A DNA stretch of 64,000 bases from Candidatus Limnocylindrales bacterium. GTDB taxonomy: Bacteria > Chloroflexota > Limnocylindria > Limnocylindrales > CSP1-4. Below the pieces are notes generated by a model. That model was given only the letters and a program-made list of their open reading frames with translations. It was not told the DNA's origin and searched no databases. Made by a program: the position numbers and the translations under genes. The stretch's first letter is position 1, and the number at the start of each line of letters is the position of its first letter. Shown piece by piece: positions 34,205 to 53,412 of the stretch. The stretch spans positions 51,399-115,398 of the forward strand of contig JBBSFD010000001.1 of the NCBI GenBank assembly GCA_038239115.1, written 5' to 3'.

Positions 34205-35209
34205 ATGCGCGGCCGAAGAGGCTCGATCGGGCGGGTCGCGATCGGCCTGGTCATCTCCGTCGTCTCGCTGTGGCTCGTCCTGAGCTCGGTGAACTTGGGC
34301 GAGGCCTGGGATGTGATCCGAACCGCCAGCCCGGCATGGCTGGTCGTCGGGTTGCTGTTCCTGTCGGCCGACGTGCTCGTCCGGGCCGTCCGCTGGCAGC
34401 GCCTGGTCCTGCCCATCAAGCGCGTCCGCTACGGTCCGATCCTCGAGTACACCCTGGTCGGCTACCTGGCCAACAACGTCCTGCCGGCCCGCCTGGGCGA
34501 GCTCGTCCGCTGCCACTACCTGGGCGATCGCGAGAAGGTCAGCCGGGCCTCGGCGCTGGGCACGGTGGTCGTCGAACGGGTGGTCGATGCGGCCGTGGTC
34601 GTCGCCATCGCCGCGGCAGCGATCCTCGTCCTGCACGTGCGCGGCGTCGTGGCCAGCGCGATCCTGGTCGGGCTGGCCGTCGTCGGCCTGCTGGTCGTGG
34701 CCCTGGCGATCGGGATCGCCGCCCATCGCCTGCCCGGCGCCCGCCGCCTCGGAGGGCTGGTCGAGCGCTGGCCGAGCGTGGCCGAGGCGGCCCGCCGCCT
34801 GCGCGATGGCCTGGCCGTGGCCGGCCGGCCACGGACGCTGGCCGAGGCGCTGATCCTGACCGTCGTCGCCTGGAGCGCGACCGTGGTGGCGTTCGCCGCG
34901 ATCGGCCAGGCGATCGGCCTGCACCTGCTCATCGGTGAGGCGGCCCTGCTGGCGTCCGGTGTGGCCCTGGCCACGGCGATCCCGTCCGGCCCGGGCTACC
35001 TCGGCACGTACGAGCTGGCGGCCGTGAAGATCGCCGAAGCGCTCGGCCAATCGACCGAGCAGGCCTTCGCCCTGGCCCTCCTCGCCCACGCCTCCGTCCT
35101 CATCCTAACCAGCGTCGCCGGCGCCGGAGCGTTCATCCGCCTGGGCTGGACGAGCAGCGTGCACGAGGTCGAGGACGTGATCGCGGGCCGGCCCGACCCG
35201 GCGCCGTAG
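34205..35209 (+). CDS. flippase-like membrane protein (lysylphosphatidylglycerol synthase TM-region / UPF0104 family)
   Basis: Multi-TM protein of the family that commonly partners GT2 transferases (YLANNVLPARLGELVRCHYL). Confidence 0.7.
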   Translation: MRGRRGSIGRVAIGLVISVVSLWLVLSSVNLGEAWDVIRTASPAWLVVGLLFLSADVLVRAVRWQRLVLPIKRVRYGPILEYTLVGYLANNVLPARLGELVRCHYLGDREKVSRASALGTVVVERVVDAAVVVAIAAAAILVLHVRGVVASAILVGLAVVGLLVVALAIGIAAHRLPGARRLGGLVERWPSVAEAARRLRDGLAVAGRPRTLAEALILTVVAWSATVVAFAAIGQAIGLHLLIGEAALLASGVALATAIPSGPGYLGTYELAAVKIAEALGQSTEQAFALALLAHASVLILTSVAGAGAFIRLGWTSSVHEVEDVIAGRPDPAP

Positions 35210-35284
35210 CGGCCTCCTTCCGCGCGGTTCCGTGCCGCGGCGATCGTTCCTGACCTCGGCTGCGTTCGTGCCCCGTCGCCGAGT

Positions 35285-35490
35285 GTGTGTTCTCAGTTCC
35301 GCAAAAGGTCCATATGGGGACCCGTTCGGGCGTGGCCCGGCCATTCGGAGCCTCTGCGCCCGGTCTTCGGGCGAGTATTCGTCCTGGCCCACGCTCAGGT
35401 CCGCCCAGCGATCGACACGATGAGGTCGTGGCCGGGAGGGCCGCCTCGCCAAGGCCCTCAGATTGCAGTTTTGCGGTTCTGAGTGCACAT
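35285..35490. repeat. about 200-bp non-coding block bounded by inverted repeats (CTCAGTTCCGCAAAA ... TTTTGCGGTTCTGAG; 13/15 complementary); MITE-like or structured-RNA candidate
   Basis: Arms at 35292-35306 and 35469-35483, flanked by GTGTGT / TGCACA; lies within the 680-bp convergent non-coding region 35210-35890. Confidence 0.4.
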
Positions 35491-35743
35491 CCCGACGCGG
35501 CAGGCCCGGGCCCCGCCCCGGGCCGGCGGCCGCGCCGCCGCCGAGAGCCGGCCCCGAAGCGATGTTGCGTGGGGTAGGACAAAACCGAGGTTTCGGCCGC
35601 GCCAGGCTTGCTCGGGGCTCCATCGCGGGCGAACTTCCGCACCTGTTGAGCGTGGCTCGGGATAGCCTCGGCCCATTCGAGCCAGCTGGAGCCGGTCTCG
35701 GGCTTCGAAAGGCCCGTTTGGCCTATGGCACGCACCGTTGCGC

Positions 35744-35810
35744 GAGCCGCCGAGCCGCCGAGCCGCCGAGCCGCCGAGCCGCCGCGCCCCGCAGAGCCGG
35801 CCCGGCCCGG
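35744..35810. repeat. compound tandem repeat: (GAGCCGCC)x4 then (GGCCC)x4
   Basis: Read directly at 35744-35775 and 35791-35810. Confidence 0.7.
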
Positions 35811-35890
35811 CCCGGCCCCAAGAGGCACCCGGAATCGAAGAGCCCCCGGCGCGAGGCCGAGGGCTCCTGGAATTGCGGCGCGATCGACGC

Positions 35891-36802
35891 TTACTTCACG
35901 AAGCCGTTCGTCTGGAGCCAGGACTTCGCGACGGCGGCGATGTCCTTCTTGTCGACGGACACCTGCTTGCCCAGGTCGGTCAGGGTGGTAGTGTCCATCT
36001 TGGCCGAGACGGCGTTCAGGAGCGCCTCGAACGAGGTCTTGTCGACCTTGGCGAGGTAGTCGTTGCGGACGAGCGGCGCGATGTTGTCGGCCGGCTGCGT
36101 CTGCTTGTCGTCCTGGAGGGCGACCCAGCCATTGACGGCGATGTCCGGCTGAGTCGAGCACAGCTCGCCGACGTCGATCGTCTTGCCCAGCAGGGCCTGG
36201 GCCATCGGGGTGTCGCACGCCGATAGCAGGGTTGCCTTGGACAGGTCCAGCCCGTACGCGGCCTTGAGCGCCGCACCGCAGACCGGGTTGGTCGGGCAGT
36301 CGGTCGCAACGCCGAACTTGAGCTGGGCCTGGACCGCGGTCAGGTCGCTCATCTTGGTCAGGTGGAACTGGGCCGCGGTGTCCGCCCGGACGACGAACGT
36401 GTTCTGGTCCGCTGCCGGCGAGAAGTTCAGGACGGTGATCCCACCACCCTTGCCATTCATGACGTTCTGCAGCTCGGTCTCATTGGCCGCCGGATCGCCG
36501 GTCTGCTTGCCCGATTCGTAGAATGCGAGCGCGCTGCCGATGTACTCAGGAACCATGTCGAGTTGGCCGCTCACGAGAGCCGGCTCGAATACCTTGCGAC
36601 CGCCGATGCCGAGACCCGTCCGATCGACGGTGTAGCCGTTGGCTTCCAGATCCTGAGCGTAGATCTCGGCCATCAACTTGGATTCATAAAACGTGTCTGA
36701 ACCAATCTTGATCGTGGGCTTGCTGCTGCCCCCTCCCGACGAACAGGCGCTCAAGAGCACCATCATCGCCGCCCCGAGGGCTAGCGCGCGGTTAAGCCGC
36801 AT
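35891..36802 (-). CDS. ABC transporter substrate-binding lipoprotein, glycine betaine/choline (OpuAC/ProX family)
   Basis: Lipoprotein signal MRLNRALALGAAMMVLLSAC; OpuAC-like fold. Confidence 0.8.
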   Translation of the reverse strand: MRLNRALALGAAMMVLLSACSSGGGSSKPTIKIGSDTFYESKLMAEIYAQDLEANGYTVDRTGLGIGGRKVFEPALVSGQLDMVPEYIGSALAFYESGKQTGDPAANETELQNVMNGKGGGITVLNFSPAADQNTFVVRADTAAQFHLTKMSDLTAVQAQLKFGVATDCPTNPVCGAALKAAYGLDLSKATLLSACDTPMAQALLGKTIDVGELCSTQPDIAVNGWVALQDDKQTQPADNIAPLVRNDYLAKVDKTSFEALLNAVSAKMDTTTLTDLGKQVSVDKKDIAAVAKSWLQTNGFVK

Positions 36803-40939: not shown

Positions 40940-41068
40940 CTCGACACGATCTCCGTTGGGCGGGCTGGGCGGTCAGTATCGCCGATCGTGGCGCCGGACT
41001 CGGGCTCGGGCCGGGAGCCTCGCCCATTGGGGCCCGGGCGTCGGCGAGTCCCCTGACCCTAGGCCTCG

Positions 41069-41237
41069 CGATTCCGCGTGCATGGTCACTGGCTAGTGAG
41101 GGACGCCCTTAGCCTACGAAACGCCCGCCTCGGCTCCCCGATTCGCGCATGGCTCGAGCTCAAGCCGCAGTCGGCCCCGCCAAACCCTGGTCTGGGGCCT
41201 GGGCCTTGTGCTCGCCGCGTCCATGCACGCGGAATCG
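41069..41237. repeat. perfect 17-bp inverted repeat (CGATTCCGCGTGCATGG / CCATGCACGCGGAATCG) bracketing 135 bp of non-coding DNA
   Basis: Arms at 41069-41085 and 41221-41237, verified against the codon positions of overlapping track ORFs; lies in the 385-bp gap between the LLM oxidoreductase and a small upstream gene. Confidence 0.5.
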
Positions 41238-41324
41238 ATTGAGCGAAGGCCCAGGCCGAGGGTCGCGCCACCGAACCCCGAGCCGCCCTCGTCGCGGAAC
41301 GAGGACCTCGCCACGGAACGAGAG

Positions 41325-41603
41325 TCAGGCGTTATCCAGCTCGCGCGAGATCGCCCGCAGGATGAACCGGGCCGCCTCGGCGCTCTTGCCGCCGAGCTTC
41401 TGGCCGTCGTCCTGTTCGAGGGCGCGGCCCAGGTCGCCCAGCATCAGGTCGAGGGTCGGGGTGCGGACCAGGGTGCCTGCTGCAAAGGCCGCCTCGAGGC
41501 CGGCTGCGGCGGTTCGGGCGTTGTCGACGGCATGGCCCTTGGCCTCCATCGCCTCGCGAAACGCCAAGCGTGCCGCGTCGGCCGCCGGCCCGCTGCTGGC
41601 CAC
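41325..41603 (-). CDS. hypothetical small alpha-helical protein (92 aa)
   Basis: GTG start; high GC3; co-directional and 20 bp downstream of the RimJ-like GNAT gene. Confidence 0.35.
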   Translation of the reverse strand: MASSGPAADAARLAFREAMEAKGHAVDNARTAAAGLEAAFAAGTLVRTPTLDLMLGDLGRALEQDDGQKLGGKSAEAARFILRAISRELDNA

Positions 41604-41622
41604 GGTCAGCTCATCCCCACGG

Positions 41623-42300
41623 TCAGCCGATCCGCTGGATCGTGGGAGCGTCGACCGGGCGGCCCGTCGCCGGGTCGGTGAGCGGCGACTCGTCCGCGCC
41701 GGGATCAGCCACGGCGCCCGACACGCCAGCGGGAATGGCCGCCTGCATCGCCCGCCAGTCGCTGTCGAGGATGCTCATCTCGACCTCGTCCCACCAGCGG
41801 TCGTCGCGCCGGATCGCCTCCCGGGACCGGCCCTCGATGATGAAGCCGGCCCGCAGGTAGGCCCGAATCGCCCGCTCGTTGAAGGCGAACACGCTCAAGC
41901 CGATCCGATGCAGCCGCAGCCGCTCGAACGCGTGCTCGAGCATCAGCCGGGTGGCTTCGGTGCCATAGCCCTTGCCCCAGGCTTCCTTCTCGCCGATCGT
42001 GATGTGGAACAGGGCCGAGCCGTTCTCGCCGTCGAGCTGGCTGAAGGCGCACGTCCCGAGCAGCCGATCCGAGGTCCGCTCGTGGATCGCCATGGCCAGC
42101 GAATCGGAGCCCAGGACCCGGGCATGGAAGAAGCGCTCGATCTCGGGCCGGGCCATCGGCCCTTCCTGGTAACGGGTCAGGCGGGACACCTCGGGGTCGG
42201 CGTACCAGCGCATGAACGCGGCCAGGTTGCCGGGCACGTGTCGCTTCAGGACGACCCGGTCGCCCACCAGACGGTCGGGGAACCAGCTGCGGTGGAGCAT
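41623..42300 (-). CDS. GNAT family N-acetyltransferase (RimJ/RimL-like)
   Basis: C-terminal 225 aa of track ORF 41623..44544; HITIGEKEAWGKGYGTEATRLMLEHAFERLRLHRIGLSVFAFNERAIRAYLRAGF acetyltransferase core. Confidence 0.75.
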   Translation of the reverse strand: MLHRSWFPDRLVGDRVVLKRHVPGNLAAFMRWYADPEVSRLTRYQEGPMARPEIERFFHARVLGSDSLAMAIHERTSDRLLGTCAFSQLDGENGSALFHITIGEKEAWGKGYGTEATRLMLEHAFERLRLHRIGLSVFAFNERAIRAYLRAGFIIEGRSREAIRRDDRWWDEVEMSILDSDWRAMQAAIPAGVSGAVADPGADESPLTDPATGRPVDAPTIQRIG

Positions 42301-42327
42301 CGAGGCGGACGGTATACCATCCCCGCC

Positions 42328-44181
42328 ATGCGCCGCTGGAGCGAGGTCGCCGAGCGGGTTTCGGCCACGACGCGGACCTCTGTCAAAACGCACCTGCTGG
42401 CCGACTACCTGCGCGCGATCGACGTCGAGCAGCTGCCCGTGGCCACGGTCTTCTTCGCCGGACGGCCCTTCGCCGAGGTGGACAGCCGGACGACCGGCCT
42501 GGGCTGGGCGACGATCTCGGGTGCCGTGGCCGGCCTCGACGACCTGCCGGCCGATGCCCTGGGCGACGCCTACGATCGATCGTCCGACCTGGGCCTGGCC
42601 GTGGCCGACGTGCTCGAGCAGGCGATCGAGTCGCGCCGCCAGCGGGGTCAGCCGGAGCGCGACACCGAGGGCCTCAGCCTGGCCGAGGTCGCCCGTGCGT
42701 TCGCCGCGATCGAGACCGCGAGCGGCTCGACCGCCAAGGCCGAGCGCTTCTCCGAGCTCCTGGCCCGGTGTGACCCGCTGACCGCCCGCTACGTGGTCAA
42801 GATCCTCACCGGGGAGCTCCGGATCGGGCTGGGCGAGGGCCTCCTCGAGGCCGCCCTGGCCGAGGCGTTCGGGCGGCCGATCGCCGCCGTCAAGCGGGCC
42901 GGGATGCTCACCGGCGACGTCGGCCAGACAGCCCTGCTCGCCCGCGACGACCGACTGGGCAGTGCCGCCATCGCCCTGTTCCATCCGCTCAAGTTCATGC
43001 TCGCTTCGCCGGCCGAGGACGCCAGCGAGATCATCGGCCGGCTGGGCCCGACGGCCTGGGTCGAGGACAAGTACGACGGGATCCGGGCTCAGCTCCACCG
43101 GGCCGGCCGCGACGTGCGCCTGTACAGCCGCGACCTGCACGACATCACCGGCCAGTTTCCCGAGGTCGTGGACGGGGCTCGCGACCTGACCTGGACGGGC
43201 ATCCTCGACGGCGAGATCCTGGCCTATCGGGAGGGCACGGTGATGCCCTTCGTGGCCCTCCAGAAGCGCCTCGGCCGGAAGGCGCCGTCCGCCGCGATCC
43301 GGGCCGAGGTACCCGTTGTCTACGTGGCCTTCGACCTGCTGGCCCTGGCCGACTCGGGCGTGCCCAACGGCACGGAGCGGGCAACTGGTTCGGAGCCGGC
43401 CGCCGAGGCCCTCCTCGATCGGCCCCTGGCGGAGCGCCGCCGCCGCCTCGAGGCGCTCGACCTGCCGGCCGCCGACGACGGCGGCTCGTTTGCCCTGTCG
43501 CACCTGGTCTCGGTCGACTCGGCCGACCAGCTGGAGGAGGCCTTTGACCAGGCCCGCCTGCGGCGCAACGAGGGGCTCATGGTCAAGGACCCGGCCAGCC
43601 CATACTCGCCCGGCCGGCGCGGCCTGGGCTGGCTCAAGATGAAGAAGGCCCTGGCGACCCTCGACTGCGTGGTCGTCGGCGTCGAGCTCGGCCACGGCAA
43701 GCGCCACGGGGTCCTCTCGGACTACACCTTCGCCGTGCGCGACGAAGCGAGCGACCGGCTGGTCACGATCGGCAAGGCCTACACCGGCCTGACCGACGCC
43801 GAGATCGCCGAGATGACCGCCTGGTTCGAGGCCCACACCCTGGCCCGCTATGGACGCTACCGGACGGTCCAGCCGACCGTGGTCGTCGAGATTGCCTTCG
43901 ACGTGATCGTTCGCTCCAACCGGCACAGCTCGGGTTTCTCGCTGCGCTTCCCCCGGATCGCCCGGCTGCGCCTCGACAAGGACGCCGCCGAGATCGACAC
44001 GACCGCCTCGGTCGAGGCCGTCTGGAGCGGCCTCCAGCACGAGCCAGAGCAGCTGGTAACGGCCGGCCACGTGCGCGGCGGGACGCCATCGGCCCGTTGG
44101 CGCAAGGTCCCTGGCGAGGTTCCTGGCGCGGCCGGGGATGGACCTTCGGATGGGCCGGCGGGGGACAACTCGCCGGGCTAG
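42328..44181 (+). CDS. ATP-dependent DNA ligase (LigB-type)
   Basis: Adenylation motif I WVEDKYDGIRAQLH (KYDG-type lysine), motifs III-V (EGLMVKD..., LKMKK); in-frame internal ATG at 42328 of ORF 41149..44181. Confidence 0.85.
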   Translation: MRRWSEVAERVSATTRTSVKTHLLADYLRAIDVEQLPVATVFFAGRPFAEVDSRTTGLGWATISGAVAGLDDLPADALGDAYDRSSDLGLAVADVLEQAIESRRQRGQPERDTEGLSLAEVARAFAAIETASGSTAKAERFSELLARCDPLTARYVVKILTGELRIGLGEGLLEAALAEAFGRPIAAVKRAGMLTGDVGQTALLARDDRLGSAAIALFHPLKFMLASPAEDASEIIGRLGPTAWVEDKYDGIRAQLHRAGRDVRLYSRDLHDITGQFPEVVDGARDLTWTGILDGEILAYREGTVMPFVALQKRLGRKAPSAAIRAEVPVVYVAFDLLALADSGVPNGTERATGSEPAAEALLDRPLAERRRRLEALDLPAADDGGSFALSHLVSVDSADQLEEAFDQARLRRNEGLMVKDPASPYSPGRRGLGWLKMKKALATLDCVVVGVELGHGKRHGVLSDYTFAVRDEASDRLVTIGKAYTGLTDAEIAEMTAWFEAHTLARYGRYRTVQPTVVVEIAFDVIVRSNRHSSGFSLRFPRIARLRLDKDAAEIDTTASVEAVWSGLQHEPEQLVTAGHVRGGTPSARWRKVPGEVPGAAGDGPSDGPAGDNSPG

Positions 44182-44211
44182 AACGGTCCGGACCGGGCGT
44201 ATCCTGTAGGC

Positions 44212-44742
44212 GTGTATGAGGACATCGGGCCCGCCCAGCTGGAGCTCACCCTGTACACCGACTCGTTCATCATCCGGGGCTCGATCGCGACTCGCTACAA
44301 GCGGGTGACCGATGTGCTGACCGACCCCGAGCACCACTTCATCGTGCTCTCGGACGCGACCGTCGACGAATACGGCTCGCGCGAGCTGGCGACCAAGACC
44401 CAGTACGCCCAGGTCAACCTGGCCACGGTCCTGTTCGCCGTCTCGAACCAGCCGGTCGAGTCGACGCCCGAGCTGCGCACGATCAAGGTGCCCGAGGCGG
44501 CCCTGATCTCGATCCCACCGTTCCGGATCAGCGGCCGGATCCACCTGCTGCCCGACCGCAGCCTGGCCCAGGCGTTGGGCGAGCTGGAGGCCAGGTTCCT
44601 GCCCGTGACCGAGGCGACGTTCTGGTCGGAGACCGTGGGCGAGGCCCGCCAGACGGTGCCCCTGCTGGCCTTCAACCAGGCCCGTGCCCAGGTCCTCGCG
44701 CCGTTCCGGATCGTCGACCCGTGGGCCGACCTGAAGACCTGA
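44212..44742 (+). CDS. hypothetical protein (176 aa), 30 bp downstream of the DNA ligase
   Basis: Clean ORF with high GC3; no recognisable domain. Confidence 0.45.
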   Translation: MYEDIGPAQLELTLYTDSFIIRGSIATRYKRVTDVLTDPEHHFIVLSDATVDEYGSRELATKTQYAQVNLATVLFAVSNQPVESTPELRTIKVPEAALISIPPFRISGRIHLLPDRSLAQALGELEARFLPVTEATFWSETVGEARQTVPLLAFNQARAQVLAPFRIVDPWADLKT

Positions 44743-48401: not shown

Positions 48402-48477
48402 GGGGGAGTAGCTCAACGGTTAGAGCGGCGGGCTTATATCCCGCTGGTTCCAGGTTCGAATCCTGGCTCCCCTACCA
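48402..48477 (+). tRNA. tRNA with anticodon TAT (tRNA-Ile, AUA-decoding), CCA encoded
   Basis: Cloverleaf folded by hand: acceptor GGGGGAG/CTCCCCT (G1-U72 wobble), D-arm GCTC-AACGGTTA-GAGC, anticodon arm GCGGG-CTTATAT-CCCGC with T35A36T37 at 48435-48437, variable loop TGGTT, T-arm CCAGG-TTCGAAT-CCTGG, discriminator A, CCA. Confidence 0.75.
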
Positions 48478-52761: not shown

Positions 52762-52767
52762 CCGACG

Positions 52768-52822
52768 CGTTCCGGCGGCGCAGTTCCGGCGGCGCGGTTC
52801 CGGCGGCGCGGTTCCGAACCGC
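52768..52822. repeat. 14-nt tandem repeat, about 3.5 copies (GTTCCGGCGGCGCR), starting 7 nt after the LAL stop codon
   Basis: gttccggcggcgc a gttccggcggcgc g gttccggcggcgc g gttccgaaccgc, read directly. Confidence 0.7.
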
Positions 52823-52926
52823 AACCGACCTGCATCCATCCCGTTATCGCCGGCTAGGCCGGCCGCGGGTCATCCTCGACCCAGTATCGCGCAGACTCGC
52901 TCGATCCCAGCCCGCGGAGGCGTCCG

Positions 52927-53157
52927 ATGATCCAACCAACCAGCCGATCCCCCTGGCCGACCCGCCAGGCCGATCTCGCCTCGGGTCCGATCACCTGCGC
53001 GACGTGCGGCTGCCGCCTGAAGGTTGATGCGTTCGAGGAAACCTGGCGCCACTTCGAAGGCACGACCGGCCGCGACGCCCGGGGCTGCCGGGTCGAGTGC
53101 GTGACCCTGGCCCACGATGCCCACGGCATCGCGCTGATGAGCTACACCGCCGGATAA
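52927..53157 (+). CDS. small cysteine-rich protein (76 aa; putative zinc-ribbon-like)
   Basis: GGAGG RBS 7 nt upstream; high GC3; Cys pattern CxxCxC...CxxxC (ITCATCGCRL...GCRVEC). Confidence 0.45.
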   Translation: MIQPTSRSPWPTRQADLASGPITCATCGCRLKVDAFEETWRHFEGTTGRDARGCRVECVTLAHDAHGIALMSYTAG

Positions 53158-53412
53158 TCCGGTCGGCTCCGGTTTGCTCGGCCCGGGTTCCTATCGTTTA
53201 GCAATCACCGTGCTAGTAGGCGCGATCCAAGGCCGATTCTTCGGCCCCAGGGCCGCGGGGTCAGAAGCGCCACGCTCATTCCGGGCCGCCTGACCTCCGA
53301 TCAGGTCGGAATTCGGGTCTCGGTACCCGCCTAACAGCACGGGGAGTGCTGTTCGGTGGATTCGGGCGCCCGGCCTGGCTGGCCACGCCAGCGGGCGGGT
53401 CAGCGGCTCGAC

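Follow-up and report, generated by a model that had tools for sequence, protein, structure and literature searches.

The question raised by this locus is what occupies the 681 bp (35210-35890) between the stop codons of two convergent genes, and how so long a spacer came about. The locus lies in a stretch of 64,000 nucleotides that was analysed as a whole and is referred to here as the window. The gene on the plus strand (34205-35209) encodes a protein of 334 aa with a Pfam match to LPG_synthase_TM. On the minus strand lies opuAC (35891-36802), which encodes a 303-aa protein matching the OpuAC substrate-binding domain and is the final gene of an ABC-transporter operon (opuA operon). On a crude gene map, convergent gaps elsewhere in the 64-kb window do not exceed 128 bp, except for one of 651 bp, and long stretches of non-coding appearance occur besides the gap only at 40940-41324 and 52762-53412. 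The GC content of the gap varies between 0.67 and 0.73 along its length and is 0.72 overall, similar to the surroundings. This is a genuine non-coding gap, of unusual length for this genome. A preliminary description of the locus, made from the sequence, had reported a gene-free convergent gap of about 680 bp and considered it unusually long. Both statements hold, as the distance from the LPG_synthase_TM stop to the opuAC stop is 681 bp and the only other convergent gap above 128 bp contains a probable gene.

The latter gap, 52762-53412, has a probable small gene at 52927-53157 (+), whose 76-aa Cys-rich product has no Pfam match, and a 14-nt tandem repeat (GTTCCGGCGGCGCG x3, 52769-52816) directly past its upstream stop. 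Elsewhere in the window, at 41149-44544, two very long ORFs overlap on opposite strands. ATP-dependent DNA ligase domains begin at residue 397 of the plus-strand ORF, and the minus-strand ORF has a GNAT domain close to its C-terminus. The real genes of this stretch are far shorter than the ORFs, as is typical of high-GC shadow frames.

We searched the gap for traces of coding sequence. In the GC frame plot the flanking genes reach GC3 values of 0.93-0.97, and all frames within the gap stay at or below about 0.80. Pfam searches with four ORF translations from the gap matched nothing. A single frame, on the minus strand, stays open through the entire gap, and this was the frame covered by the exhaustive protein search, a HMMER comparison with 1.84 billion representative proteins. 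The search returned one match (E 7e-5), which we rejected as spurious, for it is a 12/28 alignment to a protein with internal repeats, three copies of which inflate the score. There is no protein gene in the gap, as the preliminary description had supposed: GC3 signal, Pfam match and credible homologue are all absent.

The same junction was then compared in related genomes. The OpuAC homologues carry the names of Candidatus Limnocylindrales or Chloroflexota MAGs, which places the organism in Candidatus Limnocylindrales, and the closest one besides the source itself is about 90% identical. In total, 173 related loci were collected, by look-ups of exact proteins and by scanning representative genomes and metagenome contigs once each. 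Where LPG_synthase is still convergent with opuAC, the spacer between them ranges from 43 to 1687 bp. Short spacers measure 43, 61, 70, 72, 79, 87, 91, 97, 102, 119, 124 and 149 bp, long gene-free ones 323, 357, 386, 416, 520, 622 and 672 bp, and those with an inserted gene 823-1687 bp. Many relatives have a spacer of 61-124 bp at this junction, and others have unrelated long filler or inserted genes. The locus whose LPG_synthase protein is nearest to that of the window (L104, 90% identity) has a spacer of 61 bp.

The genes inserted 3′ of opuAC are a 371-aa acyltransferase-like gene, DUF72-like genes, a gene of about 245 aa and a small membrane protein of 149-166 aa, the names being given from recognised sequence motifs. 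Inserts are present in L091, in L032/L034/L041/L064, in L075/L086/L088 and in L016/L094/L099. Because the inserted genes differ between lineages, the opuAC/LPG_synthase junction is a hot spot of gene content. The gap could accordingly be imagined as the decayed pseudogene of a gene once inserted here, as in these relatives, and the open minus-strand frame does show a weak codon-position skew in GC (0.78, 0.60 and 0.63) over 35540-35780. However, tblastx and tblastn comparisons of the gap with all genes inserted at the junctions of relatives gave nothing above low-complexity matches, Pfam was negative on the gap ORFs, and the sole HMMER match among the 1.84 billion proteins, besides being spurious and driven by repeats, lies outside 35540-35780. 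We regard a pseudogene origin as very improbable.

Of the whole gap, only about 35 nt at its opuAC end (35829-35866) have a BLAST match in relatives. The remaining ~610 bp have none, also when compared with the gene-free spacers of L001, L005 and L007. The third codon positions of opuAC are 0.69-0.74 identical between the window and its relatives, and intergenic elements of 69-70% identity were found with the same BLAST settings, therefore orthologous neutral DNA would be visible. The lack of any match for the ~610 bp thus shows that the filler of the gap is non-orthologous to the fillers of the relatives, each lineage having acquired its own. Among the outcomes that the preliminary description had listed as speaking against its reading was absence of the region at the orthologous junction. 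This is what we see, since the region is missing from many relatives (spacers of 43-124 bp) and unrelated sequence takes its place in others. Judged by this criterion, the reading as an sRNA locus fails.

The source is a MAG, judging from the names of the homologues, and the region contains simple repeats, so the gap might be an assembly artefact, either a chimeric join or a collapsed repeat. This explanation is hardly credible in our view. Both flanking genes are intact and syntenic with those of the relatives, and long spacers appear at this junction in independent assemblies of relatives, including four in which the locus is identical (L001-L004) and two in which it is 99% identical (L005/L006).

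The conserved part of the gap corresponds to a GC-rich hairpin at 35838-35868 (-), located 22 nt past the opuAC stop and consisting of a 13-bp stem and a 5-nt loop. It is followed by the tail CGAUUCC (at 35826-35837), with no canonical U run. The local fold of 35822-35890(-) has -36.6 kcal/mol over 69 nt (z -2.47). A strong GC-rich hairpin is located ~15-60 nt past nearly all of the ~130 distinct opuAC orthologues, with a stem of 11-16 bp and a loop of 3-9 nt. The stems vary in sequence (GAGCCCCCGGCC, GAGCCCGCCG, GAACGGCCTGCCCG, CAGATGCCCCGCC and others), and a tail of the CGATTCC or TTCGTT type often follows, some relatives having UUCGUU or UUUUC. An alignment of 45 of these hairpins shows changes on both sides in 7 of the 9 predicted pairs; as the alignment consists of pre-selected hairpins, the percentage paired is biased in it, but the diversity of complementary stems is not. 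The hairpin is very probably the intrinsic terminator of the opuA operon. A strict consensus scan for a hairpin plus T run called no terminator-like site in the gap, because the tail of this hairpin has no U run. In the shortest spacers, such as the 61 bp of L104, the opuAC hairpin abuts the stop of the converging gene and probably serves both genes as a putative terminator. At two loci of relatives, L007:4919-5250 and L016:3910-4110, the 3′ half of the opuAC terminator and its TCGATTCC tail are present in 2-3 tandem copies. The idea that the terminator together with this tail constitutes a repeated element in the window was rejected, as only one copy is found there.

At the other end of the gap, 44 nt past the LPG_synthase_TM stop, the local fold contains a stem-loop at 35253-35286 (+), formed by CCUCGGCUGCG...CGUCGCCGAGUG and followed by UGUGUUCU. 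This stem-loop may terminate LPG_synthase_TM, but its fold is no better than that of shuffled sequences (z +0.27) and relatives do not conserve it. Three short GC-only hairpins were seen in the local fold of 35503-35552, for example GGCCCGGG-CCCCGC-CCCGGGCC at 35503-35524, and they are no better than shuffles either (z +0.09 and +0.96). A weak BLAST similarity of this segment to the GC-rich spacers of L012/L013 and L007 is a matter of low complexity.

Tandem Repeats Finder recovered two arrays in the gap, (CGAGCCGC)x5.8 at 35743-35788 (97% matches, score 85), which was also found by a separate repeat search, and the microsatellite (CCGGC)x4.4 at 35797-35818 (100% matches, score 44). Relatives have other GC-rich tandem repeats where the microsatellite sits. 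On the minus strand the microsatellite reads GGGGCCGGGCCGGGCCGGG, a motif of the G-quadruplex type (35801-35819), but it was dropped as a special feature given 12 regex matches in the 64-kb window. The compound tandem repeats of the preliminary description are therefore there, as these two arrays, while its short direct repeats fared less well. The two occurrences of TTCGGGCG in the gap are explained by chance, as by our own arithmetic 681 nt of the same composition should contain ~14 repeated 8-mers. The other example, CCATTCG(G)AGCC, falls inside a 47-nt imperfect direct repeat (35326-35372 and 35657-35703) that was matched by 4 of 200 shuffles and is borderline, and for the same reason direct repeats were rejected as att-like sites.

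The preliminary description had also reported a block of about 200 bp flanked by inverted repeats. Such a block exists at 35286-35489 (204 nt, hereafter block 1), with imperfect inverted repeats TGTGTTCTCAGTTCCGCAAAA / TTTTGCGGTTCTGAGTGCACA and a multi-branched interior, and it is our candidate for a MITE-like unit. The core of the arms lies at 35286-35308 and 35467-35489, with 17 of 21 bases matching across the 204-nt span. Shuffles of the gap average 10.5 and reach 13.4 at most, and the ungapped inverted-repeat score of the block is 10.6, hence the arms by themselves are no more than chance. The RNA fold of 35280-35495, by contrast, is more stable than expected, with z -3.6 on the plus strand, where 0 of 200 shuffles were as stable, and z -2.7 on the minus strand. 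The block thus stands as a stable RNA fold, but not by its arms. The whole gap, folded on both strands as the preliminary description had suggested, does no better than chance (z -1.3 and +0.35).

We found no copy of block 1 elsewhere in the 64-kb window, in the 173 related loci or in plasmids (the gap as a whole has no BLAST match among 72,556 of these), and a 23-mer of its arm was not found among metagenome contigs. No target-site duplication surrounds it, the best flanking direct repeat being 4 nt long and offset from the ends. By reading the sequence we picked out the arms of a weak second block of 175 nt at 35564-35738, closed by a 15-nt imperfect inverted repeat (35564-35578 / 35724-35738, 11 of 15 bases). 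Its closing stem is present in the MFE structure, but the fold is no better than that of shuffles (z -1.28 on the plus and -0.52 on the minus strand). This block, which shares the borderline 47-nt direct repeat with block 1, is possibly a second unit in decay.

The long gene-free spacers of the relatives have the same layout as the gap, that is, the terminator, GC-rich tandem repeats specific to the lineage and an inverted-repeat block, here of 125-240 nt. The block of L007 has closing arms of 25 nt and a fold with z -6.8, that of L001 arms of 23 nt and z -3.1, and further blocks closed by inverted repeats occur in L005 and L103. Inverted repeats with a span of 100-260 nt are enriched: over 818 kb of non-redundant sequence, those with a score of at least 15 were counted 16 times against 2 per shuffle, and those with a score of at least 16 were counted 8 times against 0-1 per shuffle. 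Two of the relatives' units have a second copy. Family A is present at the opuAC junction of L016 and at the Oxidored_molyb/LON junction of L001 (69% identity), and family B at the opuAC junction of L094 and, in the opposite orientation, beside A in L001 (70% identity). The units, 160-190 nt in size, are located at L001:8085-8271, L001:8343-8504, L016:4175-4366 and L094:1823-2006. In both families the homology is confined to the unit, with the inverted-repeat termini as its limits, between unrelated flanks. L016 and L094 are closely related (identity of 0.89 at opuAC third positions), yet the site is occupied by A in the former and by B in the latter, and in L099 the 3′ arm of B alone is left at the opuAC-junction site (L099:1187-1215). 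Families A and B are discrete units that are quickly gained, replaced and deleted, which is MITE-like behaviour, and the dispersal of such inverted-repeat-bounded units in the relatives suggests a MITE-like class of elements.

Further members of these families did not turn up, as nhmmer profiles of A and B retrieved no more copies in ~950 kb and the exact arm patterns of both were absent from viral contigs. No target-site duplications were seen around the blocks of the relatives. In pairwise comparison of the blocks, only A-A and B-B were significant; WIN1 against L016A reached z 6.4 with a 15-nt match, which is marginal after 156 comparisons. An interior motif, GATTCGYGCRTGG / GCTCAG, that by eye appeared to be shared between blocks was dropped, for no k-mer was enriched above dinucleotide shuffles in 13 independent blocks and, by our own estimate, an 11/13 match between two 170-nt sequences is expected by chance. 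Because there is no common motif and no similarity beyond A-A and B-B, placing block 1 in the same class as these units is an assignment by architecture.

The window itself contains a second block of this type, at 41069-41237, with 169 nt closed by a perfect 17-nt inverted repeat (CGATTCCGCGTGCATGG / CCATGCACGCGGAATCG). It lies inside a 385-bp non-coding gap (40940-41324) between two minus-strand genes, and the fold of 41063-41243(-) has -99.5 kcal/mol (z -5.45). It has no Rfam match and nothing similar in the related loci, and it exemplifies the block type better than block 1 does. In the checked parts of the window we found no transposase; the large unassigned stretches encode a DNA ligase, a GNAT acetyltransferase and a histidine kinase.

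The preliminary description had offered the region as a candidate sRNA locus, and block 1 or the whole gap could indeed be a structured non-coding RNA acting through its structure, either an sRNA or an element in the 3′ UTR of opuAC or LPG_synthase_TM, closed by a long stem. The fold of block 1 (z -3.6 on the plus and -2.7 on the minus strand) is what such an RNA would show, the analogous blocks also beat their shuffles (L007 z -6.8, L001 z -3.1, window 41063-41243 z -5.45), and some closing stems contain G-T pairs, which are tolerated at the RNA level only, although this concerns very few events in the arms of family B. Against this, the best Rfam match in the gap has E 0.75 and lies below the gathering score, so that the suggested Infernal/Rfam check gave no covariance-model match here. 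Rfam found only a tRNA (48402-48474) in the whole window and nothing in eight related loci, ARAGORN reported nothing near the gap, and no sigma-70-like promoter was found in it. The block is missing from many orthologous junctions, L099 shows such a unit decaying by deletion, there is no motif common to the blocks, and the gap as a whole is not unusually structured. With no Rfam family, no promoter, conservation limited to the terminator and a single sub-block folding above chance, the sRNA reading did not hold up, and we consider a structured RNA unlikely.

The explanation that we favour, with moderate confidence, is that non-coding DNA was inserted or expanded in one lineage at a Candidatus Limnocylindrales junction of fast turnover, so that the gap is now composed of a conserved terminator hairpin and ~610 bp of filler with a MITE-like unit. 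The ancestral state was likely a short spacer of ~60-120 bp with one GC-rich hairpin terminating the opuA operon. The lineage of the window would then have gained ~610 bp between the opuAC hairpin and the LPG_synthase_TM stop. This DNA would comprise one MITE-like unit of ~204 nt closed by inverted repeats, perhaps a second and decayed unit, the GC-only hairpins, and two micro/minisatellites that probably arose from replication slippage; at this place relatives have tandem repeats of other kinds and terminator halves in duplicate. By analogy, block 1 would have come by the same route as the inverted-repeat units of the relatives. We infer that the added DNA has no sequence-specific function beyond stable hairpins between converging transcription units, and the stability of the block 1 fold might equally reflect an RNA function. 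The arms of block 1 at chance level, the lack of a homologue or second copy in the sequences searched and of a target-site duplication, and the fact that no transposase was seen in the checked parts of the window all count against the insertion or expansion with a MITE-like unit.

Several of these same observations would fit a neutral filler that arose at the site itself, without any mobile element. The spacer would then have been stretched by repeated slippage, by duplications or inversions of local sequence, and by illegitimate recombination at a terminator that is GC-rich and forms hairpins, and the inverted repeat of block 1 would be a chance match or the product of a duplication with inversion. 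The block 1 inverted-repeat score equal to the shuffle expectation, its lack of a second copy or target-site duplication, the tandem arrays in the gap, the tandemly duplicated terminator halves of L007 and L016 and a GC content of 0.72 as in the surroundings are all in line with this account. On the other hand, no segment of the 610 bp is similar to anything else in the window, which leaves no obvious local source, the plus-strand fold of block 1 beats all 200 shuffles, and discrete units bounded by inverted repeats do land in such junctions in relatives. We consider neutral filler possible but rather improbable. Of the alternatives named in the preliminary description, a remnant of a mobile element or a recombination scar are the best descriptions of the region by analogy with the units of the relatives, although no second copy, target-site duplication or homologue was found for block 1.

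In a wider reading, block 1, the block at 41069-41237 and the two families of the relatives would be members of a hitherto undescribed class of GC-rich elements of 160-200 nt that colonises terminator-proximal intergenic DNA in Limnocylindrales. We put this forward tentatively and regard it as doubtful. The class may be defined by a long closing stem, no target-site duplication and a turnover faster than point mutation, and its members may act as mobile hairpin elements of a new type or as RNA modules that stabilise or insulate converging 3′ ends. In a full-text search we found, among the matches listed, no publication that pairs 'Limnocylindr' with repeat terms.

As it stands, the gap is a minor finding, another long, repeat-rich spacer whose sole conserved part is a terminator hairpin. 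Its interest lies in the convergent opuAC/LPG_synthase junction as a hot spot in an uncultured Chloroflexota order, where the gain and loss of genes, of inverted-repeat-bounded units and of simple repeats outpaces the divergence of neutral sequence, and in the discrete 160-200-nt inverted-repeat-bounded units that Limnocylindrales genomes contain at different loci. Should these units turn out to form a coherent family, they would, to our knowledge, be the first small mobile or structured elements described for the group, and they could serve as a marker for strain-level variation.

How does the gap compare with known classes of elements? REP units are ~20-40 nt long, highly similar to each other and very numerous per genome. 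With REP and the RAYT-mobilised REPIN the gap shares GC-rich, extragenic, palindromic DNA between convergent genes and long hairpins. The units described here, however, are 160-200 nt in size and mutually dissimilar, with no evidence of high copy number, and neither similar copies nor a RAYT gene were seen in the sequence examined.

MITEs are shorter than 500 bp, lack a transposase ORF and have terminal inverted repeats of ~4-30 bp; their flanks carry direct repeats (target-site duplication), though these can become indistinct in old copies, they occur in several dispersed copies with unrelated flanks, they are AT-rich and reside in AT-rich intergenic DNA, and their transcript forms a thermodynamically stable stem-loop (PMC10969869). 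Block 1 resembles the ERIC and Correia-type MITEs in its size of 204 nt, below the 500-bp limit, and in having no transposase ORF or coding signal. It is intergenic, its inverted repeats measure ~20 nt (the arm score being at the shuffle mean), and its transcript would fold stably (z -3.6 on the plus strand). Families A and B of the relatives are likewise discrete, with two loci each and homology ending at the inverted-repeat ends. Unlike MITEs, block 1 shows no target-site duplication and no second copy in the sequences compared, and the gap is GC-rich (0.67-0.73) rather than AT-rich. No cognate insertion sequence was identified, the blocks within one genome are mutually dissimilar, and there is no sign of an amplification burst.

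The head-to-tail units of 5 and 8 nt with 97-100% matches correspond to bacterial micro/minisatellites of the VNTR type, and related genomes differ in the units and copy numbers at the same place, as is seen for such loci. The arrays of the gap differ in lying outside any promoter or coding region, therefore no role in phase variation is suggested. The conserved hairpin, finally, is to be compared with the intrinsic (Rho-independent) terminators of convergent genes. It departs from them in its tail, CGAUUCC or other U-poor variants in place of a U run, and it agrees with them in being a GC-rich hairpin of 13 bp located 22 nt past the opuAC stop, at a position that is conserved and with stems that covary across the order.
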